A stretch of 64,000 bases of DNA from Vampirovibrionaceae bacterium NZW_1234 (GTDB lineage Bacteria > Cyanobacteriota > Vampirovibrionia > Vampirovibrionales > JAGQHJ01). This document shows, in pieces, positions 3,189 through 62,561 of the stretch. Numbering within the stretch: position 1 is the first letter of the stretch; every line of letters begins with the position of its first letter. The translations under genes were made by a program, and so were the position numbers. The stretch is from positions 89,665 to 153,664 of the forward strand of contig JBGUGD010000030.1 of assembly GCA_041697335.1 (NCBI GenBank). The letters run 5' to 3'. Below the pieces are notes generated by a model. The model searched no databases. It was not told the DNA's origin and saw nothing but the letters and a program-made list of their open reading frames with translations.

Positions 3189-4259
3189 ATGTTATTTCCA
3201 GTTATTCTTTCTGGTGGAATAGGTAGCCGTTTGTGGCCCTTATCACAGCCTCAACTGCCCAAGCAATTTTTGCCCTTGAACGGACAGCATAGTATCCTGC
3301 AGGAAACGGTGTTACGTTTAAAGGATTTTCAGGATATTGCACCTATCACCTATGTTTGCAATCAAACTCACCAGTTGCTCATTCAATCGCAATTAGAGCA
3401 GATTGACGCTCAGCCCCATATCATTATTATTGAGCCTGAAGCCAAAAATACGGCTCCGGCCATAGCCAGCGCCGCATTTTATCTTGAGCATGTTCCTGAT
3501 GATCCGTTAATGATGGTATTGCCTTCGGATCACATCATTCAGGATAAAGACGCTTTTTACCGCTACATTCAGCAAGGAGCAGACCTGGCTCGGGAAGGTT
3601 ATCTTGTTTCCCTTGGCATCACTCCGGATCGGCCCCATACGGGCTATGGGTATATTCGGCCTGGCCAAGAAATTGCCGGGTTTGAAGACGCATTCATGGT
3701 GGATCGATTTGTTGAAAAACCTGACTTGGCCACCGCAACCTCTTATGTGCAAGAGGGCAGATATCTTTGGAACAGCGGTATTTTGATCTTTCGGCCGAGT
3801 GTATTTTTGGAGGAACTCAAGCACTTTGCACCAGGGATCTTTACGGCGTGCCAGCAAGCGGTTCAGCATTCAAAGCAACGGCCTTACCAGCATATTCTGG
3901 ATCCAGCTGCCTTTTCTGCCTGTCCTTCAGGTCCCGTGGATGTTGAGATTATGGAGAAAACAAAGCGCGCTGCTGTTATCCAGGTGAACATGGGCTGGTG
4001 TGATGTGGGATCCTGGAGTTCGTTGTGGGAAATCAGTCCCAAGGATCAACAAGGCAATGTGGCTAACCGTAAAGTCTTTTTTAAGAATGCTGAAAATTGT
4101 TATGTTAACGCTGAAAAGGAATTGGTGGTTGTGATGGGAGTGAATGACCTGATTATCATTGATACTGGAAACGCGCTTCTCATTGCGCATAAGGAAAACG
4201 AAGCCGATATTCGTGAAATGTCCAAGGTTGTCCAAAAGACCTCGATCTCACAGGAATAA
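3189..4259 (+). CDS. mannose-1-phosphate guanylyltransferase (NTP-transferase domain only, no C-terminal cupin/PMI domain)
   Basis: The N-terminus MLFPVILSGGIGSRLWPLS is a nucleotidyl-transferase G-loop. Length and central motifs match GDP-mannose pyrophosphorylases. I prefer the start at 3189 (MLFPV...) over the ORF-track ATG at 3138. Confidence 0.8.
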   Translation: MLFPVILSGGIGSRLWPLSQPQLPKQFLPLNGQHSILQETVLRLKDFQDIAPITYVCNQTHQLLIQSQLEQIDAQPHIIIIEPEAKNTAPAIASAAFYLEHVPDDPLMMVLPSDHIIQDKDAFYRYIQQGADLAREGYLVSLGITPDRPHTGYGYIRPGQEIAGFEDAFMVDRFVEKPDLATATSYVQEGRYLWNSGILIFRPSVFLEELKHFAPGIFTACQQAVQHSKQRPYQHILDPAAFSACPSGPVDVEIMEKTKRAAVIQVNMGWCDVGSWSSLWEISPKDQQGNVANRKVFFKNAENCYVNAEKELVVVMGVNDLIIIDTGNALLIAHKENEADIREMSKVVQKTSISQE

Positions 4260-4445
4260 CCCGCGAACTTTTTTGGATCTGTGCTTCTCACTTTGTCTGA
4301 TTACAGTGCTTTGTATCGAAATACTTCTCTATGTCGCGGGTAAATAACAGTCACTTTACTTACAGGAAAAATCCATTGTCCATATGAGGTTGTCGAGTTT
4401 AAAAATTAGGACAATACGGGTACATCAGCATAGCTATGAATTGCA

Positions 4446-5258
4446 ATGAGCTCACTACCGAAAATCTCTATTGTAGTGCCTTCCTATAATCAAGGCGAGT
4501 TTCTGGAAGAGACTCTGCAAAGTATTTTCACCCAAAATTACCCTAATATCGAGTTAATTATTATGGATGGTGGGTCAACGGACAATTCGGTGGAAATTAT
4601 TCGGAAATATGAACATGCTATTGCGTCCTGGGTTTCCAAGCCTGACAAAGGGCAAACCGATGCTTTAATTCAGGGTTTTAAAATTGCAACTGGTGATATT
4701 CATTGTTGGTTGAATGCTGACGATCTGTGGGAACCCAATACACTGTTTGAAGTTGCAGAGTTCTTTCAAAAACATTCCAAGTATGACGCTGTCTTTGGCA
4801 ATGCGCTTATGGTGGATAAACACAACCGGCTCATTTCAACTCGAATTGAGCATCCCTTTTGCAGGTTTATCAGCATCTACTTAGGGGCAAATATCCTAAG
4901 TCCTGCCATGTTCTGGCGTCCAGAAATTTATACCCGTGTTGGTGGTTTAAATCCAGATTATAAAATTAGCCTTGATACTGATCTCTGGCTTCGCTTTGCG
5001 AATGCGGGTGGGCGAATAGGCCATGTGAAATCAATTTGGGCTCGGTGTCGTGTACATAAAAATACGAAATCGAGTCGCCTTGGCAAAATGTCAAAAGAAT
5101 GGGACGAAATTTGCGAGCGCAACCAGCATAAAAATAAACTCGTTCGATTTTTCTGTAAGGTAATTGCCAGAATTATGCGCGTCATTTGGAAAACACTTGT
5201 TGGGGGATATGGGAAAGGATATCGGTATCTCGATTATGACTACCAGCTCGATGATTAA
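4446..5258 (+). CDS. family-2 glycosyltransferase
   Basis: ISIVVPSYNQGEFLEETLQSI...IIMDGGSTD...WLNADD is the classic GT2 DxD architecture. Confidence 0.85.
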   Translation: MSSLPKISIVVPSYNQGEFLEETLQSIFTQNYPNIELIIMDGGSTDNSVEIIRKYEHAIASWVSKPDKGQTDALIQGFKIATGDIHCWLNADDLWEPNTLFEVAEFFQKHSKYDAVFGNALMVDKHNRLISTRIEHPFCRFISIYLGANILSPAMFWRPEIYTRVGGLNPDYKISLDTDLWLRFANAGGRIGHVKSIWARCRVHKNTKSSRLGKMSKEWDEICERNQHKNKLVRFFCKVIARIMRVIWKTLVGGYGKGYRYLDYDYQLDD

Positions 5259-6546
5259 TACCCCAAGAGCACAATTCTCCAGCCGCTCTATTACCTCTTT
5301 CTTTACCGCGGAGCGTCTTGTCTTTATTGTCGCCTTTTTACAAGGCGGTTACAATGTTTTGCTCTTTTTATTTTTACGACATCATGCTGACTCCATCCGA
5401 GGAAGCCTCCACATTTTGGTTGATATTATCCTATTGGCGTTGACGTTACTCCTGTATAAGCAGAAATACACGCGCTTTGATCTGCAATCACGATTTAGAC
5501 AATGTCCCCTTGAGCTCAAAGTTCTATTTTTCTATATTCTTTGGTCATTAATGACTTTTTTATGGAATAAAGGCGGGAATGTTTATATGGAGACTGGGGT
5601 TTCCGACAAGCTACGATTCTTTTTTATGGTAGTCGAAGTTGCAATTCAAACCATAACTGTTTTCCTTTTGATGTATTTGCTCGATATCAAAAATGCCGTT
5701 GTGAAATTTTTTCAAGGGTTGAGCTTGAGTGCGATTTCGATGTGCTTAACTATTTTGGTATTCCGTGATCAATTTGGGGATAGATTGGGCGATTTAGAAC
5801 ACCGAACGATTGCAGCCACAGAAGTCTCTACTTTGACGGCTTATGTACTTTTGGTTACTGTGTGGTTGTTTATCCATGTGGGTAAAACATACAAGCAAAA
5901 ACTATTTTATGGGTTTGCTATTTTATTAGAATTCTACAGTTTGTTTTCCGGGCTGGGTAAAACAGCATTAATTTCGGGTTCTCTGTTTACCCTTATTTAT
6001 ATTCTCCTAACGAAGCGTATTTCTTTTAAAGCAAAGCTTTTTAGTTTTGCTGGTTTACTTGCTGTTTTTGGTGCAGTACAAGATCGTGTTTTTACGTACT
6101 TTACTCAGTACGCACTGGAGATGGAGAGAATTGGAGAGAGTGTGACGGGACTTTCTGGGCGCACAGAGTACTGGAAAGACATGCTAGAGCGCATACCTCA
6201 CAACTTGCTCTGGGGTCATGGGCTTAATTTAGAGGTGGGCGGTCATAATGAAATTTTAGGTGTTTTATATTCATATGGCTTGATAGGACTGCTCTTAATG
6301 TTATGGATAACATGGATTTATGTTCAAAGGTGCTTAAATTTGAGTAGAAAATCCGTGGTCAATCTGTATTTTTGTATCAATGAAAACCAATTTTTCAGTA
6401 TATTGCTACTAAGTGTCTTTTTTCTGATGGGGACAACTTCCAATCTCATCATTTCGATTTTTTATATGCCATTGCCTTTATTTGTTTTGATGAGTTTTTT
6501 CTTGGCTCAAACACCTTTGAAAAGTGGACAAGAAGAAGTTACCTAG
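5236..6546 (+). CDS. O-antigen ligase/Wzy-like polytopic membrane protein
   Basis: It has at least 10 predicted TM helices and a GHNEILGVLYSYGLIGLL block typical of the Wzy_C/O-antigen-ligase family. It is AT-rich. The start is uncertain (5164, 5236 or 5251). Confidence 0.65.
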   Translation: MTTSSMINTPRAQFSSRSITSFFTAERLVFIVAFLQGGYNVLLFLFLRHHADSIRGSLHILVDIILLALTLLLYKQKYTRFDLQSRFRQCPLELKVLFFYILWSLMTFLWNKGGNVYMETGVSDKLRFFFMVVEVAIQTITVFLLMYLLDIKNAVVKFFQGLSLSAISMCLTILVFRDQFGDRLGDLEHRTIAATEVSTLTAYVLLVTVWLFIHVGKTYKQKLFYGFAILLEFYSLFSGLGKTALISGSLFTLIYILLTKRISFKAKLFSFAGLLAVFGAVQDRVFTYFTQYALEMERIGESVTGLSGRTEYWKDMLERIPHNLLWGHGLNLEVGGHNEILGVLYSYGLIGLLLMLWITWIYVQRCLNLSRKSVVNLYFCINENQFFSILLLSVFFLMGTTSNLIISIFYMPLPLFVLMSFFLAQTPLKSGQEEVT

Positions 6547-6571
6547 ATATTAACCGAGAGATTTTTTTTAA

Positions 6572-7546
6572 ATGTTGTCATCCACGTTGTTGTCTCAGGT
6601 ACAGGTGCCTCAAACTCTTCCGCCTATCTTGATCATTGCCTTTAATCGCCCTGATACCTTAGAGCAAGTTTTACGTTCACTTTCTGATCAATCATTATTG
6701 CCAGATAAGGTGATTGCTTATGTTGATGGGCCTCGGGGCCCATCTGATATTGAGAAGGTTCAACAATGTATAGACCTTCTAACAGGGTATCGCTTACCAG
6801 GCTCATTAGAACTTCATGTCCGGTCTCAAAATCATGGTATGAACCGAAATACTTTAGAGGCCATTTCAGAGGCTTTAACGAGTCATGAATCTGTGGTTGT
6901 CATTGAAGATGATATTCTGCCGAATCCGTTTTTTTATGAACTGATGGTAAAGCTCTTAAGTGTTTATTCTGAAGAAAAAAACATTTTTTCTATTTCTGGT
7001 TATGCCCATTGGCGTGAATCCGATTTTTCAATTTGTTATGAGAAGGAGTTTAATCAGATTCAGGAGCAATTAAGCACGGATTTTATCTGTATTAACCGCC
7101 TTATTGCATGGGGTTGGGCCACTTGGGCTGATCGATGGCAAAAAGCTATGTCAAATCAGATGACAAGCAAATTACCCTACTTCTCTTTATTATTTCGACC
7201 TTTATACCCTTATACCTATCAATTAAATTATTTTTTGATTTCTCAAATCATAAAACGCAAGCTCGTCTGGGATACCCCCTTGGCTCTGAATTGTCTCTTA
7301 AAAGGCTATATCCATCTCTGCCCACAATACTCGATGATACGAAATATTGGCTTTGGTGAAGAAGCGACCCATACTAAAAGTAACACTTACTCTCTCATGA
7401 ATCAGTCCTATCGTGCTGATTTTTGTCCTGAAAGTTTACCCGAATCGCTGCAGTGTCATCCAATCATGCTTAAGCCACTGAGCTTATTGGCTCTAGTGCG
7501 CTTGCTGATATATCGTATCAAAGAAAAATTAGCATATTCTACATAG
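6572..7546 (+). CDS. putative glycosyltransferase (GT-A-like, family unassigned)
   Basis: PILIIAFNRPDTLEQVLRSL...VVVIEDDILP resembles the N-terminal beta-alpha-beta and DxD region of GT-A enzymes. It sits inside the polysaccharide cluster and is AT-rich. Confidence 0.45.
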   Translation: MLSSTLLSQVQVPQTLPPILIIAFNRPDTLEQVLRSLSDQSLLPDKVIAYVDGPRGPSDIEKVQQCIDLLTGYRLPGSLELHVRSQNHGMNRNTLEAISEALTSHESVVVIEDDILPNPFFYELMVKLLSVYSEEKNIFSISGYAHWRESDFSICYEKEFNQIQEQLSTDFICINRLIAWGWATWADRWQKAMSNQMTSKLPYFSLLFRPLYPYTYQLNYFLISQIIKRKLVWDTPLALNCLLKGYIHLCPQYSMIRNIGFGEEATHTKSNTYSLMNQSYRADFCPESLPESLQCHPIMLKPLSLLALVRLLIYRIKEKLAYST

Positions 7547-7550
7547 TCCT

Positions 7551-8732
7551 ATGCGTGTTTTATTCGTTCATAATTATTATAAAAACCTTGGAGGGGGAGA
7601 AGATCGTGTTTTTGATTTGGAAGTTTCACTTTTGCAAGAGAGTGGGCTAGACGTTGATGTCTTTGTCACCCGAAATCATGGGGCCAAGAATGCCTTTGAT
7701 CTGGTTAAAATTGGTTTTAATACCCTATTTTGCTATCAGGCTTATTCTGACATGCTAGAGCGTATTCGCCTTTTTAAGCCAGACGTGATTCACGTTCATA
7801 ACCTCTTCCCTCAGCTTTCACCGGCAGTGCTGTATGCTGCAAAAAAATGTCGAGTTCCTGTTGTGATGACGTTGCATAATTATCGCTTATCCTGTGCCAA
7901 CGCGGTCATGTTGCGTGAAAATACATTTTGCAACCAATGCAATTCTGAAGCATTTCCCTTAAGTGCCATCAAGTATGGGTGTTATATGGGTTCTCCTGTT
8001 GCCACTGTTCCTGTGGCTGGCATGATTGCGTTGCATCGGTACTTAAAGACCTGGCAGAAGTGTGTGGCCCGATTTGTTATGGTCTCTGACGCTCAGAAAC
8101 AACTTTTACTCGAGGCCAATCTGGGTTTGGATCCACAGAAGATAACCGTTAAGCCGAACTTTGTTTTCGATACTGAGGAGTTATCCTATTCCAAGGACAA
8201 TTATTTTCTTTTTGTGGGTAATCTGGCTCAACATAAAGGCGTGCCGCTCTTACTTGAGGTCTTTCAAAACGTTCAGTACCCCTTGAAGCTTATTGGCCTT
8301 GGAGAGCTCCAGCCCTTGGTAGAGCAGGCCGCCACAGAGAACCCCCATATCGAGTATTTGGGTTATCAGTCACCTGAAATCGTCAGAGCCTTCATGGCAA
8401 AAGCCAAAGCCATCGTCTTGCCTTCGCTGTGTTATGAAACATTTGGTATGGTTATTATTGAAGCCTTTTCCGTCGCAACGCCTGCTGTTGTTTCAAATAT
8501 TGGAGGGCCGGGGTGTATTGTTCAAGAGGGCAACAATGGTCTTCTCGTAGAGCCGGGCAATGCCGATGATCTAAAAGCCAAACTCACACAACTTTGGAAC
8601 GATCAAGACCTTCATCAGACCCTCTCTCGAAATGCCCGACTCAGCTATGAGAGGCAGTATTCACCCCAGGAAAATCGTGATCAGTTAATGCGGATCTATC
8701 ATGAGGTCATATCAGGCTCAAGCTCTACCTGA
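7551..8732 (+). CDS. family-4 (GT-B) glycosyltransferase
   Basis: MRVLFVHNYY...GGGE at the N-terminus and the EAFSVATPAVVSNIGGPGCIVQEGNNGLLVEPGNADDL C-terminal GT4 signature. Confidence 0.85.
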   Translation: MRVLFVHNYYKNLGGGEDRVFDLEVSLLQESGLDVDVFVTRNHGAKNAFDLVKIGFNTLFCYQAYSDMLERIRLFKPDVIHVHNLFPQLSPAVLYAAKKCRVPVVMTLHNYRLSCANAVMLRENTFCNQCNSEAFPLSAIKYGCYMGSPVATVPVAGMIALHRYLKTWQKCVARFVMVSDAQKQLLLEANLGLDPQKITVKPNFVFDTEELSYSKDNYFLFVGNLAQHKGVPLLLEVFQNVQYPLKLIGLGELQPLVEQAATENPHIEYLGYQSPEIVRAFMAKAKAIVLPSLCYETFGMVIIEAFSVATPAVVSNIGGPGCIVQEGNNGLLVEPGNADDLKAKLTQLWNDQDLHQTLSRNARLSYERQYSPQENRDQLMRIYHEVISGSSST

Positions 8733-8840
8733 GGAGCCATAACCCTGATGCTTGGATTCTCCATTGCCTAGAGGATGAGAATTGGCAGACCCTATGGTTC
8801 AATAACTGTAAAATAGGCAACGACTGGACAGCCTTTCCCG

Positions 8841-10979
8841 ATGAAAACGCACGAAACCTATATTATTGAGCACGCCAATGACGATGTTTTTAAAATTGAT
8901 ATTGGCCTTATTTTTCATTTAGTGAAACGCTATCTCCCCCATAGTATTAGTATCGGGGTTGTTTGTGTGCTATTGGTAGGACTTTCCCTGCATTTCTATC
9001 AGGAAAAATATACCTCTGATGCCACGTTGATGCTGAGTTTGCGAGAAATCCCTGGGGTTATTAAAGAAAACCAATCTCGTGGTCCATTGGGAGAAGGGAC
9101 TGGTGGTATTCTTCTTGATCCCTTTAAAATTCAGGAGGAATTATTACGTAACCGTGTGTTTCTTTCTCGGGTTTATAAGAACCTCCAGGCAACCAAGCAA
9201 ATACCTGAGCTTAACTCCCCTGGTACACTTGCCAAAGCAATTTCCACAAAACACCCTCCTGGGACCGAGTTTTTGAAAATCAGTGTCACGTGGCCCAACC
9301 CGGTTGAATCCCAGCAGATTGCCAATGTGTTGGTGAAAACGTTTCAAGAGTATACTGAGGAGATTGAGTTGGCTCCTCTAAGAGCCAGAGAGCGCAATCT
9401 CAATAAACAACTTCTTGCGGCCTCAAGTAGTTTAAGTGATATTGAGCACAAAATTGAGAATTACCAGGAAACCCATAATCTGGTTAACTTGGACCAGGAA
9501 GGGAGCCAATTACTGAACCGGTATGGATTGTTGCTCAAGGATTATGAAGAAAAAGAAGCTCAGTATGCCGGTATTACTCAGCAAATTGCCCAAATTCATC
9601 GGCAATTGAATATGGATACGGACTCTGCGATTCGCTCAGCCTCTGTAGGACAAAGCCAGATTTATCCGAAATTAATTTCCGAGCTGGCTGAGTATGAGAA
9701 AGAATATAATACCAAGGCCTTAATTTACACGCCTGCCAGTCAGCAGCTCAAACTCCTTCAAGAGCAGATTGCCGTTTTAAAAAAGCAAATTGACAGTTAC
9801 GAGGTTCTTACTGTGGGGCGGAAGCTGGATAAAGGCAAAACCTTGATCTTGGATACCATTCGCTCCAGAGCCGTTGAACGTTTGACGGAGCTTGAATCTC
9901 AAAAGAAAGCCATTGAGTCTACCCAGGCTGTGTTAAAGGGGCAAATTGAGCAAATCAGACTTGGCATGAATCAATTGCCGGAAAAGCAACTGGCGTATGC
10001 GCAGTTAATCATGCAGCAAAAACATTGGACCAATGTGGTGGAGCGATTAAAGGATAATATTGCCGAAGTTCAGTTGCAACAATATTATCAGCGGCTTTTT
10101 GTTCTAACGCCGCCAAGCCTGCCCAAATCGGCGTCATTTCCCAATAAGCTTCATTTTCTGTTGATGGCCTTTGTCGCAGGTCTTGCCTTGCCCACCGCCG
10201 GCTTGGTTGGGACGCAATATTTGCGCCTGGTGGGTGTGGTGAAACCCTTTATGGTGGAAGAGGATTTTCAATTACCGGTACTGGCTGTGCTGCCTTGGTT
10301 GAAAAAGCATCCCTCGAATCAAGCCCAGGACATTTTAACCGGGTCATATCAGTCGTTGGCCTTGAATGTCAAAACCATGGCCTCTCATGCCAATAAAAAA
10401 GTCTTCTCCCTGGCGACCGGATTCTCAGACGGCCGTCAGCGCTCCCAAGTACTTGTCAATCTGGCCATTGGGTTGGCTCAAGCGGGTGACAAGGTGTTGC
10501 TGCTGGATGCCAATTTACGCAGCCCTGCCATGCTTTACACCTTGGGTGAATCTGCCGACCACGGTCCTGGGTTATCGACCATTGTGCATGAACTGCAACA
10601 GATGAGTGACCAGGTGGCAGCGATGCCTCCTGCCATGTTTAAAGCGTGGATAACGCCCTATGTCCGAGCCACTCGGGTTCATCCCAATGTTTCTTATATC
10701 CCCACAGACACGACTGTGGAGCAGGTATTTGAATTATTTAACGCCAAGGGCTTCGATCAGTTTGTATCACACATTAAAGAGCATTACGATTGGGTTTTAT
10801 TTGACGCCCCATCCATTCTAAACAGTGCCGAATCTTGTGCCTTGCTGCGCAAGGTGGATGGGTTGATTCTTCTCTTGGAGCGTTTGACCTCGACCCAACA
10901 CTTGAAAGAGATTGTTCAGAAAGTGCAAAAAGTAGATGGCACCATTGATGGTGTTGTGATGCGGGAGCCCGAGTTTTAA
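8841..10979 (+). CDS. Wzc/PCP-2-like polysaccharide co-polymerase with a degenerate C-terminal BY-kinase-like P-loop domain
   Basis: TM1 near residue 40. A long coiled-coil Wzz-like periplasmic domain follows. TM2 lies near residue 440. The cytoplasmic domain has a Walker A' (VLLLDANLRSP) and a Walker B-like DWVLFDAPS. The Walker A is TGFSDGRQRS, where GKT has become QRS. There is no C-terminal Tyr cluster. Confidence 0.7.
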   Translation: MKTHETYIIEHANDDVFKIDIGLIFHLVKRYLPHSISIGVVCVLLVGLSLHFYQEKYTSDATLMLSLREIPGVIKENQSRGPLGEGTGGILLDPFKIQEELLRNRVFLSRVYKNLQATKQIPELNSPGTLAKAISTKHPPGTEFLKISVTWPNPVESQQIANVLVKTFQEYTEEIELAPLRARERNLNKQLLAASSSLSDIEHKIENYQETHNLVNLDQEGSQLLNRYGLLLKDYEEKEAQYAGITQQIAQIHRQLNMDTDSAIRSASVGQSQIYPKLISELAEYEKEYNTKALIYTPASQQLKLLQEQIAVLKKQIDSYEVLTVGRKLDKGKTLILDTIRSRAVERLTELESQKKAIESTQAVLKGQIEQIRLGMNQLPEKQLAYAQLIMQQKHWTNVVERLKDNIAEVQLQQYYQRLFVLTPPSLPKSASFPNKLHFLLMAFVAGLALPTAGLVGTQYLRLVGVVKPFMVEEDFQLPVLAVLPWLKKHPSNQAQDILTGSYQSLALNVKTMASHANKKVFSLATGFSDGRQRSQVLVNLAIGLAQAGDKVLLLDANLRSPAMLYTLGESADHGPGLSTIVHELQQMSDQVAAMPPAMFKAWITPYVRATRVHPNVSYIPTDTTVEQVFELFNAKGFDQFVSHIKEHYDWVLFDAPSILNSAESCALLRKVDGLILLLERLTSTQHLKEIVQKVQKVDGTIDGVVMREPEF

Positions 10980-10997
10980 AGCAGCTTTACCGTCAGT

Positions 10998-12797
10998 TTA
11001 GGCGCTGTTTCGGATAGTCATCACGCTGGAAAACCCCGAAAAGTTCAGCGTGCTGATGGCCGATTGTTGGGACTGAAATTGGGTCATCAATTTTTCCAGT
11101 TGTTTAAACTCGTTTCGATAGCGTTTTTCTTTGGCATCAAGCAGGGTTTGTTGGCGAGCGATAGCTTGATCCAGGGATTTGATCTGGGCATTGGCCGAGG
11201 CGCTTCGACTGGAAAATAGGCCAAACTCCGGATTCAGTGCGTTTGTCAGGGTGTCCAGGGCGGTGTAGAGTAACCCTTTCTGGCTCCCATTGCCAATCAA
11301 CAGGGTTTTCACTTCATCCGGATTGGTGGTTAATGCTTGATTCAGTTGAGGGGTATTGAGGGAAAAGGTTTTGGAAACTTGAGTGCTACCCGGGCTTGCG
11401 GCTCCTGTGGAAAAGCCGATACTGGCCAGGGTTTTGACACTGGTAAGATTCAGGTTGCTGCTGGCTGCCGAGGTGAATTGGGAAAACAGGGTATTTCGTA
11501 AATTCACAAGGCCGCTTTCACCGGCCAGGGCGCCGCCTTTGGCGGTTTGCAGATCAATGGTGGCGATGAGGTCATTCAGGTCATTGGCGACGGTTTGTAA
11601 GGCCTCGCTGAGTCTGCTGGTATTCTGGGCGATGGTAATGGTGGTGCCATTGCTGACCTTGTTCAGGTTTAAGGTCACGCCGCTGAGGCCTGTAATATCT
11701 TCCCCCAAGTTGTTTGAGGCGCTTTGCAAGGTGGTGCCCCCATTGATGCTGACACGGGCATTTTGGCCCAAGGTTTGGGAACTCAAACTGTCATTGCCGT
11801 TGACCAGCCCCAGGGACTGCAGGACGTTGGTGCCATTGTCGTCGAAAAAAATGGCGAGGTTGCCGGTGGTTTTGGAGGTGGCGGTGAGTTTATTGGTGTT
11901 GGGGTCGAAGGCCAGTTGAACGCCACTGGCGGCGTTGCTGTTGACGGCCTCAATAAAGCCCTTGAGCGTGGTGGTGTTGGTGACGGTTATGTTGGCCTGG
12001 CCAATGGTAAGGGTTCCCGCTTGAATGGCATTGGCCCTTAAATTGGCGCCATTGCCCACAAGCGTGCCGTTCAGGTTCAGGGTGGTCAATTGCCCCGCAC
12101 CGGTAAAGTCGGTGTTGGTTTGGCTGCCGGTGGTGAGTTTGGTCAGGGTGGCAAAATTGGACGTATCGGTTCCGGCACCAAATTTGAGTCTGGTGCCGTC
12201 GGCCACCGTGAATTCGATTTGACCGTCACTGTTGACACTCCCCGAGGCTGCTTGTCCGGAGATGCTGGCGATGGACTGGGAAACCCGATCCAGGACATTT
12301 TGGATGCTGTCGCTGTTATTGACGGTGATTTTTGCGGCTTGATTATTGACAAAAATGCTGAATTCCCCTGCTTTTACGGTTCCCTGGGCAATACTCAAAA
12401 TGCTGTCATTGCCGGTCGCGACCTTCCCAATGGGATTGAGGCTGGTGGCCTTGGTGGCTATGGCCAGTGCTTGAACATCAAGGCTCAGGCTGCCCGGATT
12501 GGCTTGATTGGTGACGGTAGCCGTGACACTGGTGGTATCGGAGCTGGTTGCTGTCTTGGCGGAGAACAGATCGAAACTGGTCCCGAGGTTGGCTGAAGTC
12601 AGGGTGGAAAGGCTGTTTTTGAGCTTTGAAAACTTGTTGGCAATAGCACTGAACTGGGTCTGCTGGGTTGATACGGTGGCTTTCTGCCGGACCAGCGTAT
12701 TGAGTGGGCGTTGATCGATTTTGAGCAACGCATTGACGATGTCGTTGACCGGAAGTCCGGAAGAAATGCCACCAAACTGGATACTCATGGTGCCCAC
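10998..12797 (-). CDS. fliD: flagellar filament cap protein FliD (hook-associated protein 2), paralogue 1
   Basis: The N-terminal GGISSGLPVNDIVNALLKIDQRPL..L...K......Q..F is the FliD N-domain. The C-terminal QIKSLDQAIARQQTLLDAKEKRYRNEFKQLEKLMTQFQSQQSAI is the FliD C-domain. The middle is Thr/Asn/Gly-rich. The ORF-track start is a GTG at 12797; an ATG at 12788 (MSIQF...) is more likely. Confidence 0.8.
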   Translation of the reverse strand: MGTMSIQFGGISSGLPVNDIVNALLKIDQRPLNTLVRQKATVSTQQTQFSAIANKFSKLKNSLSTLTSANLGTSFDLFSAKTATSSDTTSVTATVTNQANPGSLSLDVQALAIATKATSLNPIGKVATGNDSILSIAQGTVKAGEFSIFVNNQAAKITVNNSDSIQNVLDRVSQSIASISGQAASGSVNSDGQIEFTVADGTRLKFGAGTDTSNFATLTKLTTGSQTNTDFTGAGQLTTLNLNGTLVGNGANLRANAIQAGTLTIGQANITVTNTTTLKGFIEAVNSNAASGVQLAFDPNTNKLTATSKTTGNLAIFFDDNGTNVLQSLGLVNGNDSLSSQTLGQNARVSINGGTTLQSASNNLGEDITGLSGVTLNLNKVSNGTTITIAQNTSRLSEALQTVANDLNDLIATIDLQTAKGGALAGESGLVNLRNTLFSQFTSAASSNLNLTSVKTLASIGFSTGAASPGSTQVSKTFSLNTPQLNQALTTNPDEVKTLLIGNGSQKGLLYTALDTLTNALNPEFGLFSSRSASANAQIKSLDQAIARQQTLLDAKEKRYRNEFKQLEKLMTQFQSQQSAISTLNFSGFSSVMTIRNSA

Positions 12798-20944: not shown

Positions 20945-22309
20945 ATGGTTTCAACAGATGTCTCAACCTTAAACGACTATTCTAAACCGGAGTCGACTTC
21001 GACGGACGGGCCGAAAAAGATTGGCTTTGTGCATTTGGGGTGCCCCAAGAACCTGGTGGACACCGAAAACATGCTGGGCCTGCTCAGCCATGCCGGACAC
21101 CAGATTGTGGGCGACGAGTCGGAAGCCGACGTGATGCTGGTGAACACCTGCTCCTTTATCGACAAGGCCCAGGAGGAGTCGGTGCGCAACCTGGTGCATC
21201 TGGCCGAAGCGGGGAAGAAGATCATTATCACCGGGTGCCTGTCGCAAAAGTATCAGGATGAGCTTCTGGACCTGATTCCCGAGGCCGATGCCGTGGTGGG
21301 GACCGGGGACCTTGATAAGATTGTGGATGTGGTGGACCGGGTTAACCGCGGGGAGCGGGTCATCTCCATTACCCAGGACCCGACCTACATTCTGGAAGAC
21401 GACAGCAAGCGGATGCACATCACGGTGGGCTCCTATGTCTACGTCAAGATTGCCGAAGGCTGCGATTACCGTTGTTCCTTCTGTATCATTCCCTCTATGC
21501 GGGGCGATTTCCGAAGCCGGACCCTGACGTCCATTGTGGATGATGCCAAGCGCTTCGTCGAAAAAGGGGTTTCCGAGATTATTTTGGTGGGACAGGACAC
21601 CACCAGCTATGGCAAGGACTGTGACAGCAACCTTCCGGCCTTGTTGCGGGCCTTGAACGAGGTCGACGGCCTCCAGTGGATCCGCTTTATGTATGCCTAC
21701 CCCAATCTGGTGAGCGATGAGCTGCTGGAGACCATTGCCGAGTGTGACAAGCTGGTCAAGTACATGGATTGTCCCTTGCAGCACATGCATCCTGAGGTCT
21801 TGCGCCGGATGCGCCGACCCGTGATGGATCACGTGGCCTTTGCCGAGCGGGTTCGTGCCAAAGTTCCGGACATTCGTCTGAGAACAGGGCTGATTGTCGG
21901 CTTCCCCGGGGAAACCGAAGCCCACTTCGAGTATTTGCTGGACACCATTCAGCAGGTCGAGTTCGATCGCCTGGGTGTGTTTGAATACTCTGATGTGGAA
22001 GGGGCCCACAGCCGAGGTCTGGATGGCAAGGTGCCCAAGAAGGAGATTGCCCGCCGTCGCAAAGCCGTGATGGAAGTCCAGCAGCAGATTTCCCTGCGCA
22101 AGAACCAGGCCTTGATCGGCCAGGTGCTGCCGGTGCTGGTGGACACGGCTGATCCCAACCGAAACACCTTTGAAGGTCGCACCCAGTGGGATGCCCCCGA
22201 GATTGACAACCGGGTGCTGGGCAAAGGCCCTGCTGTTCCGGGCGAAATTGTCCAATTTGAAGTGCAGTCCGTGACGCCCTACGATTTGAAAGGCATCGCC
22301 TTGTTCTAG
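20945..22309 (+). CDS. rimO: ribosomal protein S12 methylthiotransferase RimO (MiaB-family radical SAM)
   Basis: The MTTase N-domain cysteines (HLGCPKN...NTCSF), the radical-SAM CDYRCSFCIIP motif, and a C-terminal TRAM domain. 454 aa. Confidence 0.9.
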   Translation: MVSTDVSTLNDYSKPESTSTDGPKKIGFVHLGCPKNLVDTENMLGLLSHAGHQIVGDESEADVMLVNTCSFIDKAQEESVRNLVHLAEAGKKIIITGCLSQKYQDELLDLIPEADAVVGTGDLDKIVDVVDRVNRGERVISITQDPTYILEDDSKRMHITVGSYVYVKIAEGCDYRCSFCIIPSMRGDFRSRTLTSIVDDAKRFVEKGVSEIILVGQDTTSYGKDCDSNLPALLRALNEVDGLQWIRFMYAYPNLVSDELLETIAECDKLVKYMDCPLQHMHPEVLRRMRRPVMDHVAFAERVRAKVPDIRLRTGLIVGFPGETEAHFEYLLDTIQQVEFDRLGVFEYSDVEGAHSRGLDGKVPKKEIARRRKAVMEVQQQISLRKNQALIGQVLPVLVDTADPNRNTFEGRTQWDAPEIDNRVLGKGPAVPGEIVQFEVQSVTPYDLKGIALF

Positions 22310-22378
22310 GGGCTGGAGTCTGCGACACGACGGTTTCATTTTTTGACTCGTGTTGACGCTGTTTGGCGTTTGCGGTCG

Positions 22379-51882: not shown

Positions 51883-53676
51883 ATGGCATTATCGTTTGGT
51901 GGCATCAGTTCCGGGCTTCCGGTGAATGACATTATCCGTCAGCTTATGGCCATAGAGCGTCGGCCTATAACGTTATTGAATCAGCGAAAAGACAGGATTG
52001 CTACCCAACAGTCACAGTACACAGCCGTTTCGAGTCGGACCAGCGCGCTTCGGGATTCCTTGAACAAGCTGACCGATGCCAATCTCGGCACCTCCTTTGA
52101 TCTCTTTCAGGCCCGTAGAGCCGCCAGTTCAGATGCGACAAGAGCAACCGTGTCGGTAACCAACGGGGCCTCAGAAGGCAGCTTTACCCTGGATGTTCTG
52201 CAACTGGCCACTGCCACCAAGGCTGCAAGCACTACTGAAATTGGGGCAAAAACCACTAGCACGGCGAATCTGGCCAATGTTGCCAAGGGAGCCATTACCT
52301 CCGGCAATTTCACGGTATTTATCAATAATCAGGCTCGCACGATTTCTGTGACCGTCGATAAAACCTCGGGAGATACGATGCAGGCGGTCATTGATCGGGT
52401 TGCCAATGAAATAGCTACCGTCACCGGGGCTGCAGCCACTGGGACGGTTAATGCCAGTGGGCAAGTGGAGCTTTCATACCAGGCGGGCACTACAATCCGC
52501 TTTGGGGCCGCAACAGATACCTCGAATTTCGCCCAAGTCACGCATATGTTAACCGGAACCAGTAATTCCCCGACCGATGACACGTTTACGGCACAGTACG
52601 GGACATCTACCATTGATGTGAACGGGAAGCTTATTGGGAATGCGGTCGGCTTGCAAACCAATACCATTGCTGCGGGCACGTTTAAGATTGGCACCAAGCA
52701 GTTCACGATTGATGCCAACACAACGTTGGCAGGGATCATCAGTCAGATTAACGGGAGTCCCGAGGCCGGGGTTCTGGTCAGCTACAATGTCAATACCAAT
52801 AAGCTTGAAATGGTGTCCAAAACCACCGGGAATCAGGCTATCTTTATGGAGGATAATGGCACCAATTTCTTGACCAGTGTGGGATTGGTGTCTGGGACGA
52901 ACAGTTTCAGCAGTCAGACGCTGGGGCAAAATGCCCAAATCAAGATCAATGGCGGCAATACCTTATCCAGTACCTCCAATGCCATCAGTTCCGCCGTCAG
53001 TGGCTTGTCGGGGGTCACCCTGAACCTGGTGAAGCAAACCGATGTCGGATCGCCGATTACCATTACCATCAACAACGATACCACCGCTGCCAAAGATGCC
53101 TTAAAGGACATTTTGAATCGGTTTAATACCTTGATCGGGTTTATTGATGAACAAACGAAAAAAGGCGCCGTGTTGTCCGGGGAAAACCGGTTGACCAGCT
53201 TTCGCAATGAGATCCGTCGAACAATTACGACCCAATCCACTGTTCCTGGATTGACCACCTATAAGACGCTGTCTCAAATCGGCATTACCAGCGGCAACGT
53301 GAATTCAAACTTTGCTCAAGGATCGGTTTCCAAGACCTTTAGTATGACCGATGCCGATTTTGATGCCGCCTTTGCAGCCAATCCCGATGAGGTGAAAAAG
53401 CTGTTGATTGGGGATGGGACCAACGCCGGGATTATCAGTACCATGAAAAGTCAAATCAATGCGGCCTTGGATCCCGAATTTGGGATATTCTCGTCCCGAG
53501 ATACCTCGGCAAACAATCAAATCAAGGCCATCAATGATGCCATTGCCCGTCAGCAACAACTACTGGAAGCCAAAGAAGCCTTGCTCAGAAAGCAGTTCAA
53601 TACCATGGATCAGATGATCAGCCAGTTTCGATCCCAGCAAAGCTACATCGGGTCCTTAGGGGCCAGTCAATTCTAA
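51883..53676 (+). CDS. fliD: flagellar filament cap protein FliD, paralogue 2
   Basis: 597 aa. It is co-linear with the 10998..12797 protein throughout (the same N- and C-terminal FliD domains, FSSQTLGQNA, GLSGVTLNL, NPDEVKKLLIG, DPEFGIFSSR). Confidence 0.8.
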   Translation: MALSFGGISSGLPVNDIIRQLMAIERRPITLLNQRKDRIATQQSQYTAVSSRTSALRDSLNKLTDANLGTSFDLFQARRAASSDATRATVSVTNGASEGSFTLDVLQLATATKAASTTEIGAKTTSTANLANVAKGAITSGNFTVFINNQARTISVTVDKTSGDTMQAVIDRVANEIATVTGAAATGTVNASGQVELSYQAGTTIRFGAATDTSNFAQVTHMLTGTSNSPTDDTFTAQYGTSTIDVNGKLIGNAVGLQTNTIAAGTFKIGTKQFTIDANTTLAGIISQINGSPEAGVLVSYNVNTNKLEMVSKTTGNQAIFMEDNGTNFLTSVGLVSGTNSFSSQTLGQNAQIKINGGNTLSSTSNAISSAVSGLSGVTLNLVKQTDVGSPITITINNDTTAAKDALKDILNRFNTLIGFIDEQTKKGAVLSGENRLTSFRNEIRRTITTQSTVPGLTTYKTLSQIGITSGNVNSNFAQGSVSKTFSMTDADFDAAFAANPDEVKKLLIGDGTNAGIISTMKSQINAALDPEFGIFSSRDTSANNQIKAINDAIARQQQLLEAKEALLRKQFNTMDQMISQFRSQQSYIGSLGASQF

Positions 53677-57651: not shown

Positions 57652-57891
57652 AGCGGGTATCGCCGTGTTGGGTTTTGGGTCGAAAGAGGGAATGCCTCCT
57701 GTTCTTAGTTAACCACAAAGACGTGGATTTGTCCGCGGGAAGACCCCGTGGCAGGCCGGTCGACCAATCGCCTGATTTGGACAACTGTGGTATCGTGAGT
57801 GGTATCGTGGCCGGGGAGTGGGTACCATTTTGGCCCCAGCCCTCGCGGTGGTCCCGTGTGGTTTGTGATTGTTTTTGAGGAGGTCTCTGGT

Positions 57892-60210
57892 ATGTCAGAC
57901 GCCTTGGTGCCGTTATCTGTGGCCTTTGTGTGGCACATGCATCAGCCCGAGTATAAGGATAACCTGACCGGGGAGTACCTAATGCCCTGGGTACGCTTGC
58001 ATGCGGTCAAAGACTACCTGGATATGGTCCTGATTCTCGAAGAATACCCGCGTATCCGGCAGACCTTCAACCTGGTGCCCTCGTTAATCGATCAGTTGGA
58101 AGATTACACTCGCCCTGAAACCCGGGACCGCCATATGTCGGTGATGCTCAAGGACCTCTTGACCGATGAGGATCGGTTGTTCATCTGCCAGCGCTTCTTT
58201 GATGCGGCCCATCACACCATGATTGCCCGTAGCCCCTACTACATGGAGCTCCTCCATCGGCGTCAGCAGATTCAATGGGAAGAACCGGATTTGACCCTGT
58301 TTAGTGACCAGGAGTACTTTGACATTACTGCCTTGTTCCATCTGGTCTGGACCGACCCGCTCTGGTTTGAGCGTATGCCCGAGCTTCAGGCTTTGTGGAA
58401 GCAAGGGGCTCACTATACCCTGGCCCAGCGTCAACAGATTCTGGAGATTCATCGCCAGATCATCTGCCAGGTTCTTCCGACGTATCGGGCATTTCAGGAG
58501 AAGGGACAAATTGAGGTCACCACGACCCCCTATTATCACCCCATTTTGCCGTTGCTCTTCAATTCCGACTCGGCCCGAGTGGCCATGCCGGAGGCGGTTT
58601 TACCGGAAGAGTCCTTCCAGTACCCGGAGGATGCCACTTATCATGTGCGGGCGGCTCGTGAGCGTTACGAGGCCCTGTTTGGGCGTCCGGCCTGTGGGGT
58701 TTGGCCGGCGGAGCAGTCCATTAGTCCCGATGCGGCTCTGTTGTTAAAGCAGGAAGGCTTTGGCTGGGCCGTGAGCAGCGAGGGCAACCTGGCTCGAAGC
58801 CTGGATATTCGCTTTGACAAGGACCCCTATGGCAACATCATCAATGTCGAAACCTTGTGTCAGCCTTACCAGTATGCCGGGCTCACTTTTTTGTTCCGTA
58901 ACCTGACGCTGTCGGATCTCATTGGCTTTCACTACGCCAGTATGCCCCCGGAGCAGGCGGCCGATGACCTGGTGCATCGCCTGAAGCTGATTCAAAAGCG
59001 CTGCACCCAGATGGGCGTTGCTCGGCCTATTGTGACCATTGCCCTGGATGGGGAGAATTGCTGGGAAGGCTTTCAGAACGATGGGCATGCCTTTTTGAAC
59101 GCCCTGTATGCCAAGCTCTCCGCGGATGCCACTTTGGATGTCTGTCGGGTCCAGGATTACCTGGCCTCAATTACGCCAGAGGCCATTCAGCCCTTGTCAA
59201 AGCTGCATTCGGGCTCCTGGATCAACAGTGACTTTCACATCTGGATTGGCGATCCCGTCAAGAATGCGGCCTGGATGCACTTAAAGCGTACCCGAGCGGA
59301 TCTGGTCCACCTGACCGAAACCGGCCACTACCAACCCGAGATCCTGGCGCAGGCCTGGAAGGAGATCTACATTGCCGAGGGCAGTGACTGGTTCTGGTGG
59401 TATGGCGAGCCCCATAACTCAGGGCAGGACGATGTCTTTGATATGCAGTTCCGGCGGCATCTGGCCAATGTCTACCGGCTTTTGGATATGGAGATACCCA
59501 ACTTCCTGGATATCCCGCTGACCGTCACCATGGGGCGTCCGGTGGCCACAGCGCAAGGGCCGATTCAACCCTGCCTGGACGGTCTTCAGCAGTCCCAGGC
59601 GGATTGGGATCTGGCTGGCTGTTTCGATCTGGTCCATGGGGCCATGCACCGGGGCACCCGGATCCTGAAGAAGGTCTACTTCGGCAGCGATCATCAGCGC
59701 CTGTACCTGCGCTTTATCGTCAACACCGAGGCTGTTTCACCCTATCATGAGGTCTATCTCTACTTCTGTACGCCGGGCAAGACCCGCCATAACTCGCCCA
59801 TCCGAATGAAGAGCCTGAGCGGGCATACGGCGGCCACCCAGCGGTTTCACTATGCCTATGAGATTCAACTGGGCCCCTTGCTGCCCAATCAGTTAAGTGT
59901 GACCGCGGCCGAAGCCATGGCGGATCACCTGTGGTTTCAGCGAAGCGATTTGCAGTGCGAGGCCGTCATGGGCGATGTGCTGGATGTGGCCATTCCCCTG
60001 GACAAGCTCAACACCCACGCCGAAGACTACATTCAATTCTCGGTGGCCCTGGTGCAAGGGGGCGTTATTGAAGAGTTTCAGCCGGAGACCTTTGTCTTGT
60101 CCCTCAAACGCTATTGTGAAGCCGAGGTGACCCAGGAGCTGGATGAGCCAACCGCCTGCGCCTCTGCCTTGAGTGATCAGCCGTTTCTGGGTTCCGGTCA
60201 CGCCGGTTAG
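57892..60210 (+). CDS. GH57-family glycoside hydrolase (alpha-amylase / 4-alpha-glucanotransferase-like)
   Basis: [16 protein letters not shown]...HAVKDYLDM is the GH57 N-terminal signature, with catalytic Glu and Asp regions. The ATG at 57892 follows GAGGAGG. Confidence 0.8.
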
Positions 60211-62120
60211 CGAACGGCCTCAGGCTCAGGTGTCTCGGTGGATGCCGGGGTGCTTCGCTTGCGTTGGGCCAGGACGATTTGAATGACTGAGATATCTGCG
60301 GGCGTGATGCCGGGGATGCGCATGGCTTGGGCCAAGGTGTCGGGCTTGATTTTGGCCAGCTTCTCCCGGCCTTCGTTGGAGAGCTGGGCAATGGCAGTGT
60401 AGTCTAAATCGGCAGGCAGTTTGACCTTGTGGGCGTCGGCCAGGCGGGCGACACTTTTGGCCTGCTTGTCGATATAGCCCTGGTACTTGATTTCGGTCTC
60501 GACGTAGAGGGCCACGTCCGCCGGGACGTCTTGAAGTGCGGGGGCAATCTGACCCATCATGGCAAAACTGACCTGGGGGCGAAGCAGAAGATCATGGACG
60601 CTGGTGCGCTCTTTCAGGGGGACGACCCCAGCGGCTTCCAGGACCGGATTGACATCGGTCAAGGCCGGTTTCGTGGTTTTTAAGGTCTCAAAGAGGGCTT
60701 CAACCCGTTGGGATTTGGCTTCAAAGACGGCCCAGCGCTCGGCATCGACCAGGCCAATCTCTCGGCCCAGTGGGGTGAGACGCACATCGGCATTGTCCTG
60801 GCGCAGCAGGAGGCGGTATTCGCTTCGGCTGGTCAGCATGCGGTAGGGCTCCCGGATCTCTTTGGTGACGAGATCATCGATGAGCGTCCCGATGTAGGAG
60901 GATTCCCGGGGCAGGACAAAGGGATCCTGCTTGCCCGCAAAGCGTGCGGCATTGATGCCTGCCATCAGGCCTTGGGCCGCCGCTTCTTCGTAGCCGCTGG
61001 TGCCGTTGATTTGACCGGCGAGAAACAGGCCGGGCAGGGTTTTGGCCATCAGATCCGGATGCAGCTGGTAGGCCGGGAAGTAGTCGTATTCGACAGCACA
61101 GGCCGGGCGGATGAGGCTCACGTTCTCCAGGCCGGGCAGGGTTTTGAGCATGGCCATCTGGACATCGATGGGCAGGCTTGAGGAGAAGCCCTGGAGGTAC
61201 ATCTCGTAGCTGTCCCGGCTTTCGGGTTCAATAAAGAGATGGTGGCTGTCCTTGTCGGCAAAGCGGACGACCTTGTCCTCAATGGAGGGGCAATAGCGGG
61301 GGCCGCTGCCTTCGATCATGCCCTGAAACATGGGTGAGCGGTGCATGTTCTCATGGATCAGCTGGTGGGTGGCTTCGGTGGTGCGGGTCATATAGCACGG
61401 CAGCTGCTCACGTACCGGGCGGTCGGGCAGGAAGGAAAAGAAGGTCGGATGCTCATCGCCCGGGTGAACCGGCAAGTGGGTATAGTCAATGGTTCTGCCG
61501 TCGATGCGGGGTGGGGTGCCGGTTTTCAGACGCCCGGTTTCCAGGCCCAGCTCAATGAGGCTTGCGGTAATGCCGGTAGAGGCCGATTCGCCAGGACGGC
61601 CGCCGGAGAAGCATTTTTCGCCGACAAAGAGCTTGCCGTTCAGGAAGGTCCCGGTGGTGAGGACCACGGCCTTACAGGGGTAGAGAATGCCAAAGCTGTC
61701 TTCCACACCGGTGACTTCTCGGGTCACCGGGTCGGTGACCACACGCACGGCCATGGTTTGGCGCAGGCTGAGGTTGGGTTCGCTCTCCACCAGCTTGCGG
61801 GCAAAGACCTTGTACTCGGTCTTGTCGGACTGGGCTCGAAGGGCCTGGACCGCGGGGCCCTTGCTCTGGTTCAGGGTCTTGAGCTGCAGGTAGGTGGCAT
61901 CGGCACAGATGCCCATAACACCGCCTAAGGCATCGATTTCTCGAACCAATTGGCTCTTGGCCGGGCCTCCGATGGCGGGGTTACAGCTCATTTGGCCTAT
62001 GGTTTCAAGGCTCATGCACATCAGCAGGGTTTGGCAACCCAGACGGGCTGCTGCCATGGCGGCTTCGATGCCGGCGTGGCCGCCGCCGACCACGATGATA
62101 TCGTGAGATTTCTCAATCAT
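60207..62120 (-). CDS. mnmG: tRNA uridine-5-carboxymethylaminomethyl modification enzyme MnmG (GidA)
   Basis: N-terminal [22 protein letters not shown] (FAD). 637 aa. Confidence 0.95.
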
Positions 62121-62125
62121 GGCCC

Positions 62126-62154
62126 CATTGTAGCGGAGGCGAGAAGGACATTCA
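62126..62154 (-). promoter_or_regulatory. near-consensus sigma70 promoter of mnmG; predicted leaderless transcript
   Basis: On the minus strand: TTGAAT (62154-62149), a 17-nt spacer, then TACAAT (62131-62126). The ATG is at 62120, which puts the TSS at or 1-2 nt before the start codon. No SD is present. Confidence 0.55.
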
Positions 62155-62207
62155 ACCCGGCTTTCTGATTTGAATCATGGGCGTGTGTGGGCCGCCCAGT
62201 CGGGGGG

Positions 62208-62315
62208 CGCGTGATTTACGCGTGATTTGCGCGTGAATCGCGCGTGATTTACGCGTGTTTTGCGTGTCAGGACGCGTGATTTTGGCGTGAATTCGCGGAA
62301 ATGCGCGTGGGATCG
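62208..62315. repeat. tandem array of 11-bp direct repeats (consensus CGCGTGATTTR); 5 near-perfect copies plus about 5 degenerate copies, exact 11-bp phasing
   Basis: CGCGTGATTTA / CGCGTGATTTG / CGCGTGAATCG / CGCGTGATTTA / CGCGTGTTTTG are contiguous at 62208-62262. Degenerate units follow (CGTGTCAGGA, CGCGTGATTTTGG, CGTGAATTCG, CGCGTGGGATCG). Confidence 0.8.
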
Positions 62316-62412
62316 GCGTTCGGCTGATGAGGGTGTCTAAGGCTGAAATCCTCTCTGGGAAAGGATGTTGGCGTATTTGGTTGTCGTTGAAAACGGCTTT
62401 TCATATTTTTTT

Positions 62413-62455
62413 CGGGATTTTTACGCGATTTTACGCGTTTTTCCGTTTTTTATGA
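62413..62455. promoter_or_regulatory. phased T-tracts (about 10-bp periodicity) / AT-rich unwinding-like element
   Basis: gggaTTTTTacgcgaTTTTacgcgTTTTTccgTTTTTTatg. The T4-6 runs recur every 10-11 bp. Confidence 0.5.
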
Positions 62456-62490
62456 AGGGATTAAGGGGGTGAAATATATCGTTATTATAG

Positions 62491-62521
62491 CAAAAGAACC
62501 TGCCCGAAGGCAGATTCTTTT
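62491..62521. terminator. bidirectional hairpin terminator (serves the thiolase gene on the minus strand)
   Basis: aaaagaaCCTGCCcgaaGGCAGattctttt: a 5-6 bp GC stem with a 4-nt loop and T/A runs on both sides, about 45 nt after the thiolase stop. Confidence 0.55.
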
Positions 62522-62561
62522 GAATTTCTTAAGGTTTTAGCGGATTGTAGGGCTTAGGCCC

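Follow-up and report, generated by a model that had tools for sequence, protein, structure and literature searches.

Short tandem repeats occur in bacterial genomes as variable-number tandem repeats (VNTRs) and related arrays, of which the cyanobacterial STRR heptamers are one example, and as the iterons of plasmid origins, where units of 17–22 bp lie beside a rep gene. Repeats of 11 bp are known from two protein-binding systems. Class III PhoP operators consist of degenerate 11-nt repeats that are filled cooperatively (PMC2275107), and the centromere parC of plasmid R1 has two sets of five 11-bp iterons in strongly curved DNA, with one ParR dimer bound per iteron (PMC2241845). For chromosomal origins, the gidA-oriC-mioC arrangement belongs to Escherichia coli and its relatives and is gammaproteobacterial (PMC4451416), and the cyanobacterial oriC usually adjoins dnaN and carries TTTTCCACA boxes (PMC4674748). 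Here we describe an array of 11-bp direct repeats upstream of mnmG (gidA) in a 64,000-nt stretch of contig JBGUGD010000030.1, hereafter the window. The repeats lie in a 441-bp spacer (62121–62561) that has the 3′ end of a thiolase gene on one side and the start of mnmG on the other. As a tentative leading explanation, we propose that a lineage-specific tandem-repeat expansion has produced intrinsically curved DNA, with its repeats on a single helix face, above a leaderless-type promoter that is conserved, and that it has an accessory role or none.

Two helically phased repeat arrays

The spacer contains two blocks of repeats and a non-repetitive stretch between them:

62208..62262, plus strand: core array of five contiguous 11-bp direct repeats, consensus CGCGTGATTTR (YAAATCACGCG as the unit on the mnmG strand)
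62263..62315, plus strand: about five decayed units of 9–12 bp each, with one intact copy at 62273–62282
62316..62397: non-repetitive spacer between the arrays, 48% GC, with a weak hairpin (GAAAAGCCGTTTTC); no match elsewhere and no counterpart in the related locus L083
62398..62451, plus strand: second, decayed array of a related 10–11-bp unit with six phased T-tracts, 32% GC

On the plus strand, the core reads CGCGTGATTTA CGCGTGATTTG CGCGTGAATCG CGCGTGATTTA CGCGTGTTTTG at an exact 11-bp spacing. Three of the five units fit the consensus exactly, one has two mismatches and another has one. The first-pass annotation of this DNA had described five contiguous copies followed by about five degenerate ones up to about 62315, and this was confirmed by the sequence, by Tandem Repeats Finder (TRF), which ranked 62208–62290 as the top tandem repeat of the window (period 11, 7.6 copies, score 75), and by a separate repeat search that gave spacings of 11, 11, and 11. 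The degenerate units are GCGTGTCAGG, ACGCGTGATTTT, GGCGTGAATT, CGCGGAAAT, and GCGCGTGGGAT. Counted in the CGTG register, successive spacings are 11, 11, 11, 11, 9, 12, 11, 10, and 10, with a mean of 10.7 bp, and the Fourier peak for CG also falls at 10.7 bp. The exact 10-mer CGCGTGATTT is present in four copies within 66 bp (one of them at 62273) and nowhere else in the window, and its matches with one mismatch elsewhere in the window numbered 5 against a chance expectation of 4.1. Neither the window nor 1.02 Mb of other mnmG loci yielded a further copy of the repeat. The window as a whole is mildly depleted in CGCG (observed/Markov-expected ratio of 0.70), and the tetranucleotide reaches a density of 44 per kb in the arrays vs 1.6 per kb elsewhere. 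Z-DNA formation and a methylation cluster were also considered; the ratio of 0.70 marks only a mild avoidance of CGCG. The sequence feature is real and statistically solid.

A related unit, repeated in the same orientation and now decayed, also makes up the T-tract block (CGGGATTTTTA, CGCGATTTTA, and CGCGTTTTTC). The block has six runs of four or more T (62398–62401, 62406–62412, 62418–62422, 62429–62432, 62438–62442, and 62446–62451), with a TT Fourier peak at 10 bp. The phased T4–6 tracts annotated earlier were accordingly recovered, over 62398–62451, which extends slightly wider than the 62413–62455 given for them. Other chains of phased T-tracts in the window have at most two members each, the six-member chain being unique in 64 kb, and 200 local-composition shuffles never produced a chain of more than three. 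Relative to a presumed start at about 62120, the 11-bp array occupies approximately -88 to -195 and the T-tract array approximately -280 to -330.

We estimated curvature with a dinucleotide wedge model with Bolshoy-type parameters; the model is crude and its values are indicative only. It predicted the maximum of the window at the T-tract block (110 degrees over 63 bp) and placed the 11-bp array at the 99.4th percentile. The T-tract chain statistic, which is free of parameters, agrees with the wedge model. Curvature is an automatic property of any tandem repeat with a period of about 10.5 bp and a T-run in its unit, so no selection is needed to explain the bend.

The spacer is non-coding, as had been noted, with no open reading frame (ORF) longer than 45 amino acids (aa). 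A coding reading was rejected, since the longest ORF (45 aa; 62404–62267, minus strand) enters the repeat and has no counterpart in relatives. A known RNA family was likewise rejected: Rfam gave no match at gathering thresholds, and merely sub-threshold terminator-like matches in the spacer. The spacer has fold z-scores of -3 and -4 because the repeat cores CGCG/ACGCGT are self-complementary.

A conserved leaderless-type promoter below the arrays

Two further elements lie between the 11-bp array and mnmG:

62127..62155, minus strand: mnmG promoter TTGAAT-17-TACAAT, found by consensus scan (-35 at 62155–62150, -10 at 62132–62127)
62163..62179, minus strand: A/T-rich block CATGATTCAAATCAGAA just upstream of the -35, partly kept in L083 as CATCATTAAAATAACAA

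The near-consensus promoter had been described previously with a 5-nt gap between its -10 and the mnmG ATG; the scan found the same promoter, with 6 nt between the -10 hexamer and the ATG at 62120. In two relatives, L083 (4793–4830) and L240 (3666–3702), TTGAWT-17-TACAAT stands 9 nt before the ATG, which gives three genomes with this motif 6–9 nt before mnmG at protein identities of 78–79%. The closest relative, L081, has a different upstream region. A -10 within about 10 nt of the start codon, the lack of a Shine-Dalgarno sequence, and conservation are all found here, and this geometry suggests that the mnmG transcript of the lineage has little or no leader. The A/T-rich block could be an UP-like element. 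The repeat array starts upstream of this partly conserved block, its nearest unit beginning 53 bp upstream of the -35 hexamer, at approximately -88 from the start.

The mnmG locus in relatives

Among named homologues, the best matches to MnmG come from Vampirovibrio and Melainabacteria (65–69% identity), and the nearest other homologues share 77–82%. The protein cluster of this MnmG has one member, on one contig. The window is chromosomal DNA of an uncultured Melainabacteria/Vampirovibrionia relative. A MnmG-based scan of genome contigs returned distant phyla exclusively, at 52% identity or less. Four related loci were available for comparison: L083 (78% MnmG identity, 172-bp spacer), L240 (79%, 179 bp), L081 (82%, 233 bp), and L241 (77%, 28 bp). 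In L083, the order thiolase-mnmG-GH57-release factor-aroQ-gatC-pyrG is the same as in the window.

Neither the 11-mer nor any tandem array was found upstream of mnmG in these four relatives, so that the check for conservation of the 11-mer upstream of orthologous mnmG genes gave a negative result. When the spacer of the window was aligned with that of L083, the promoter block alone aligned. The two spacers are too diverged to place insertion boundaries, and no terminal inverted repeat or target duplication was seen.

Proposed local expansion of a unit one helical turn long

In the explanation that we favor, the extra ~270 bp of spacer would be a lineage-specific, non-coding tandem-repeat module, derived by slipped-strand or unequal-recombination expansion of a 10–11-bp unit with a CGCG core and a short T-run. 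The block at 62208–62315, with five good units and decayed edges, would still be undergoing homogenisation, and the block at 62398–62451 would be an older one that has decayed into CGCG and T4–7. With a unit length of one helical turn, all of the GC cores and T-runs would be expected on one face of the helix; phasing and intrinsic curvature follow automatically from a unit that is one turn long and contains a T-run. The module would stand upstream of a short, conserved, and apparently self-sufficient leaderless-type promoter block. Any effect would be architectural: between about -88 and -330 the module would serve as a static bend and as a spacer that preserves phase, with a possible modest influence on the mnmG promoter or on the boundary with the thiolase terminator. 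An accessory or neutral role is most likely. The module is neither a replication origin nor a conserved regulatory device.

Several observations support expansion. Adjacent units differ little or not at all and the array decays at its edges, which points to recent tandem expansion and not to independently conserved sites. Local expansion also explains the second related block, the absence from relatives, and the lack of a partner gene. In the second block, the unit is related and has the orientation of the first (repeat families D2, D4, and D6). TRF applied to 1.08 Mb of mnmG neighbourhoods found tandem arrays at 4 other loci, and short non-triplet arrays do occur in bacterial spacers at this low rate. 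Like VNTR and STRR loci, the module is non-coding, head-to-tail, and lineage-specific, with near-identical neighbours, decayed edges, and an empty orthologous site in relatives. It differs from them in having a unit of one helical turn, two related blocks, and exceptional predicted curvature. The STRR-type repeats, moreover, are scattered over many loci, and no second site of this module is visible.

Other observations weigh against this explanation. The two related arrays, about 200 bp apart from start to start, share a 10.7-bp Fourier peak over 255 bp, and such a layout looks more organised than a single slippage event. The unit is also atypical of the local sequence, given the depletion of CGCG in the window as a whole and its abundance in the arrays. 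Arrays with a 9–12-bp period and at least four copies were found nowhere else in the 1.08 Mb of mnmG neighbourhoods. The predicted curvature comes from a crude model with indicative values only, and the relatives are distant, probably belonging to different genera, so that the absence of the array from them is weak evidence against function.

A possible protein-binding operator or loading site

A dedicated operator or loading site is the main rival explanation, possible but in our judgement less likely than expansion. Its ligand would be an OmpR/PhoB-type winged-helix regulator or a ParR-type ribbon-helix-helix dimer. The protein would nucleate on the five good units and then extend cooperatively, head to tail, to the degenerate ones along a single helix face, and looping over the bent T-tract DNA to the distal array may activate or repress the mnmG promoter. 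The helical phase kept through indels, at a mean of 10.7 bp, is consistent with such binding, and the array is the densest CGCG cluster of a CGCG-poor window. We know of no described box that the motif resembles.

The exact 11-bp direct repeats, with a well-kept core followed by poorly kept extension units, recall the PhoP/PhoB operators of Streptomyces (PHO boxes), in which units are likewise arranged head to tail with an 11-nt period as core and extension units, as in class III PhoP operators (PMC2275107). The PHO-box unit, GTTCAYYYRSG, is unrelated in sequence, and those operators have 2–8 units that usually abut or overlap the -35, whereas about 10 units are found here between -88 and -195, with no regulator gene in 64 kb. 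The head-to-tail layout of 10–11-bp core and extension units expected of an OmpR/PhoB-type operator is present at this locus; a position abutting the -35 or a class I position is not. With the nearest unit centred at about -93 and the array reaching to about -195, the repeats lie outside the usual activator positions of -40 to -90 and do not overlap the promoter.

The two clusters and the strong curvature also recall R1 parC (PMC2241845). That type II partition site has exact 11-bp repeats in a block of five, a second block nearby, strong curvature, and an adjacent promoter, and at the mnmG locus there are likewise two blocks of repeats and curved DNA, the second block being a decayed 10-bp variant. 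R1 parC flanks the promoter of its own parM-parR operon, and 39 bp separate its blocks. At the mnmG locus there is no parM or parR, a distance of about 90 bp separates the blocks (about 200 bp from start to start), a housekeeping promoter is downstream of both, and the unit of the second block is different and decayed. No gene for an actin-like ATPase or a ribbon-helix-helix protein was found, and the neighbours of the array are the thiolase gene and mnmG.

The array is not conserved in the four relatives, though the promoter is, there is no further site in the window beyond chance, and the near-identical units point to recent duplication. The transcription-factor array suggested by the first-pass annotation fits the geometry; the lack of conservation, the lack of a regulator gene nearby, and the distance of about 88 bp from the nearest unit to the start all speak against it, and this regulator-array interpretation is a possible but unsupported one. 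A bolder form of the idea, which we regard as doubtful, is that the array is the chromosomal loading site of a cooperatively polymerising DNA-binding protein (ParR-like or winged-helix) that coats about 10 repeats, pairs with the distal bent array, and controls leaderless mnmG. If true, a housekeeping promoter would have acquired a parC-like nucleoprotein device whose partner genes lie elsewhere and which would control a tRNA-modification gene in a non-photosynthetic relative of the cyanobacteria.

Occurrence of the 11-mer elsewhere and a possible mobile-element relic

Searches of plasmid and phage collections gave no match to the repeat region. A pattern of two units was found at more than 150 loci in metagenome and viral contigs, and by blastn the likeness to these loci never reaches past the repeat itself. 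Matches with multiple copies fall into unrelated groups, namely eukaryote-like contigs and low-GC Streptococcus-type prophages. In the eukaryote-like contigs, the 11-mer array lies inside a repeated element beside fragments of long interspersed nuclear element (LINE)-type reverse transcriptases. An apparent common spacer motif, TCGTTGAAAA, was not significant and was dropped.

One metagenome set (Ga03079xx contigs; L099 1963–2055, L137, L141, L144, L153, L173, and others) has 3–6 tandem ACGCGTGATTT units in conserved repeated elements, some of which finish in ...CCTAACCCAG and are followed by unrelated sequence. These elements look like eukaryotic retroelement-associated repeats; L099 encodes LINE-type reverse-transcriptase fragments. 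In the Streptococcus-type prophages (for example L208 7365–7382, L220 4292–4370, and L094 3926–3955), a pair or triple of TTTTCGCGTGA-TTTTCGCGTGA lies about 137 bp upstream of tyrosine-integrase genes. Close to the opposite end of the prophage, the TTTTCGCGTGA repeats directly follow the lysis module, and they also lie upstream of genes for 494-aa proteins with Schlafen/AlbA_2 and HATPase_c_4 domains. These prophage repeats are probably arm-type or operator sites. The same 11-mer is used elsewhere, probably as a protein-binding site, and this says nothing direct about the mnmG locus.

In L083, a tRNA gene and a tyrosine integrase gene (HTH_17 and Phage_integrase domains) lie at 1525–2860, directly upstream of the thiolase gene, with an 11-bp triple repeat, TGTCCAACTTG, at the 5′ end of the integrase gene. 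This suggests that an integrative element adjoins the thiolase locus in L083; the matching region of the window lies beyond 64000.

The module could, with low probability, be the relic of a mobile or extrachromosomal element, in which former arm-type integrase sites, transposase subterminal sites, a plasmid centromere, or iterons were left behind when the rest was deleted. Direct repeats of 11 bp in tandem are a typical feature of such sites, the module resembles an insertion when compared with the short spacers of the relatives, and L083 has the tRNA gene, the integrase, and the triple repeat by the same thiolase gene. The short direct repeats about 11 bp apart at prophage ends are the nearest likeness, with the identical 11-mer pair in 2–3 copies by the integrase genes and lysis module of the Streptococcus-type prophages. 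They differ from the repeats described here in copy number (2–3 vs about 10 plus 4), in context, no integrase or att site being present in the window, and in that the similarity is limited to the motif. A set of 10 or more arm-type sites would be unusually large. The module is not flanked by any integrase, transposase, rep, or par gene or pseudogene, and both neighbours are syntenic core genes. The failure to see terminal inverted repeats or a target duplication, the lack of likeness to any plasmid or phage record, and the end of metagenome and viral similarity at the repeat itself also count against a relic.

Replication-origin features

The first-pass annotation had also raised the possibility of an origin-like or initiator-titration element, which we ruled out by skew, DnaA boxes, gene context, and non-conservation. 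A check of GC skew in the 64-kb window showed no switch of sign at the array, the plus-strand skew being positive in 31 of 32 2-kb bins. Third-position skew was +0.34 in mnmG, to the left of the array, and +0.26 in the thiolase gene, to its right, where merely 1.4 kb is visible; both have the sign of the whole window. Across the window, third-position skew was +0.117 for plus-strand genes and +0.212 for minus-strand genes, and spacers gave +0.092. Positive skew to the left of the array argues against an origin at 62.2 kb, which would require negative skew there. As an observation in its own right, the plus-strand skew is consistent across the 64 kb, independent of gene orientation, and stands out against the very low strand bias of most cyanobacteria (PMC4674748).

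The proposed search for DnaA-box variants gave no match in 62121–62561 for TTWTNCACA with up to one mismatch, a pattern that covers the cyanobacterial TTTTCCACA box and has a background of 1.45 per kb in the window. No dnaA, dnaN, or parAB was found in the 64 kb. The sequence at 62406–62455 is repetitive and 32% GC, and AT-richness alone is not diagnostic of an unwinding element. The features of an iteron-type plasmid origin are also lacking, as the unit is 11 bp, there is no rep gene in the window, and nothing in the plasmid collection matched.

An origin or initiator-titration site by mnmG as in the gidA-oriC region of E. coli (PMC4451416), with the 11-mers as initiator boxes and the T-tract block as the unwinding element, is extremely improbable, because its superficial match to origin anatomy (an mnmG neighbour and repeats beside an AT-rich, repeated block and curved DNA) is outweighed by positive skew on both sides of the array, in genes of both strands and in spacers, by the missing DnaA boxes and origin genes, by the absence of the array from relatives whose 28–233-bp spacers are too short for an origin, by the normal position of cyanobacterial origins beside dnaN (PMC4674748), and by the different phylum.

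Genomic context

The genes and terminator that frame the spacer are:

60207..62120, minus strand: mnmG (gidA) coding sequence, 637 aa, with GIDA Pfam domains and named homologues
62491..62522, minus strand: intrinsic terminator hairpin of the thiolase gene, with a CTGCC-TTCG-GGCAG core and a T-rich tail; inverted-repeat arms 93% complementary
62562 to beyond 64000, minus strand: thiolase gene, its 3′ end facing the spacer; the gene continues past the edge of the window

Read along the minus strand, the thiolase stop is followed by the terminator (62522–62491), the T-tract/CGCG array (A-tracts on this strand), the 82-bp unique spacer, the 11-bp array of about 10 units, a GC-rich 30 bp, the A/T-rich block, and then the -35, the -10, and the ATG. 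The terminator hairpin can work in both directions. A perfect extended -10-like motif, TGcTATAAT (62492–62484, minus strand), overlaps the terminator tail and, if active, would send transcription through both arrays towards mnmG. Downstream of mnmG are genes for a GH57 protein and a peptide-chain release factor (PCRF and RF-1 domains), then aroQ, gatC, pyrG, and fliD. Pfam annotation of about 45 genes in the window showed no transcription factor, rep, par, or integrase gene.

Some features of the window lie apart from the mnmG locus. Two full-length fliD (flagellar cap) paralogues are found about 40 kb apart (10998–12797, minus strand; 51883–53676, plus strand). The stretch at 3100–11000 has a low GC content (39–48% vs about 55%), starts right after a tRNA gene (2913–2985), and encodes a nucleotidyl transferase, several glycosyltransferases, a Wzy-like protein, and a chain-length-regulator-like AAA_31 protein. 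This stretch is probably a polysaccharide island gained by horizontal transfer. At 20945–22339, two long ORFs on opposite strands overlap almost completely. The plus-strand ORF encodes a MiaB-like radical-SAM methylthiotransferase (UPF0004, Radical_SAM, and TRAM domains), and the 456-aa minus-strand ORF, which has no Pfam match, is probably spurious. A perfect 12-bp tandem duplication (GTGGTATCGTGA twice) lies at 57787–57809, at the predicted start of the GH57 gene.

Significance for the lineage

The Melainabacteria/Vampirovibrionia are poorly studied, and at present the finding is of little consequence. It disposes of an attractive but mistaken origin assignment based on the gidA-oriC association of E. 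coli. It also provides a clean natural example of a tandem repeat of one helical turn that gives the most curved DNA, as predicted, in 64 kb, beside a conserved leaderless-type promoter. If a protein binds the array, the locus would be a readily testable operator with 10 phased sites and a first handle on the transcriptional control of mnmG in the group. The conserved TTGAWT-17-TACAAT promoter adds a small but useful piece of information on leaderless expression in these bacteria.

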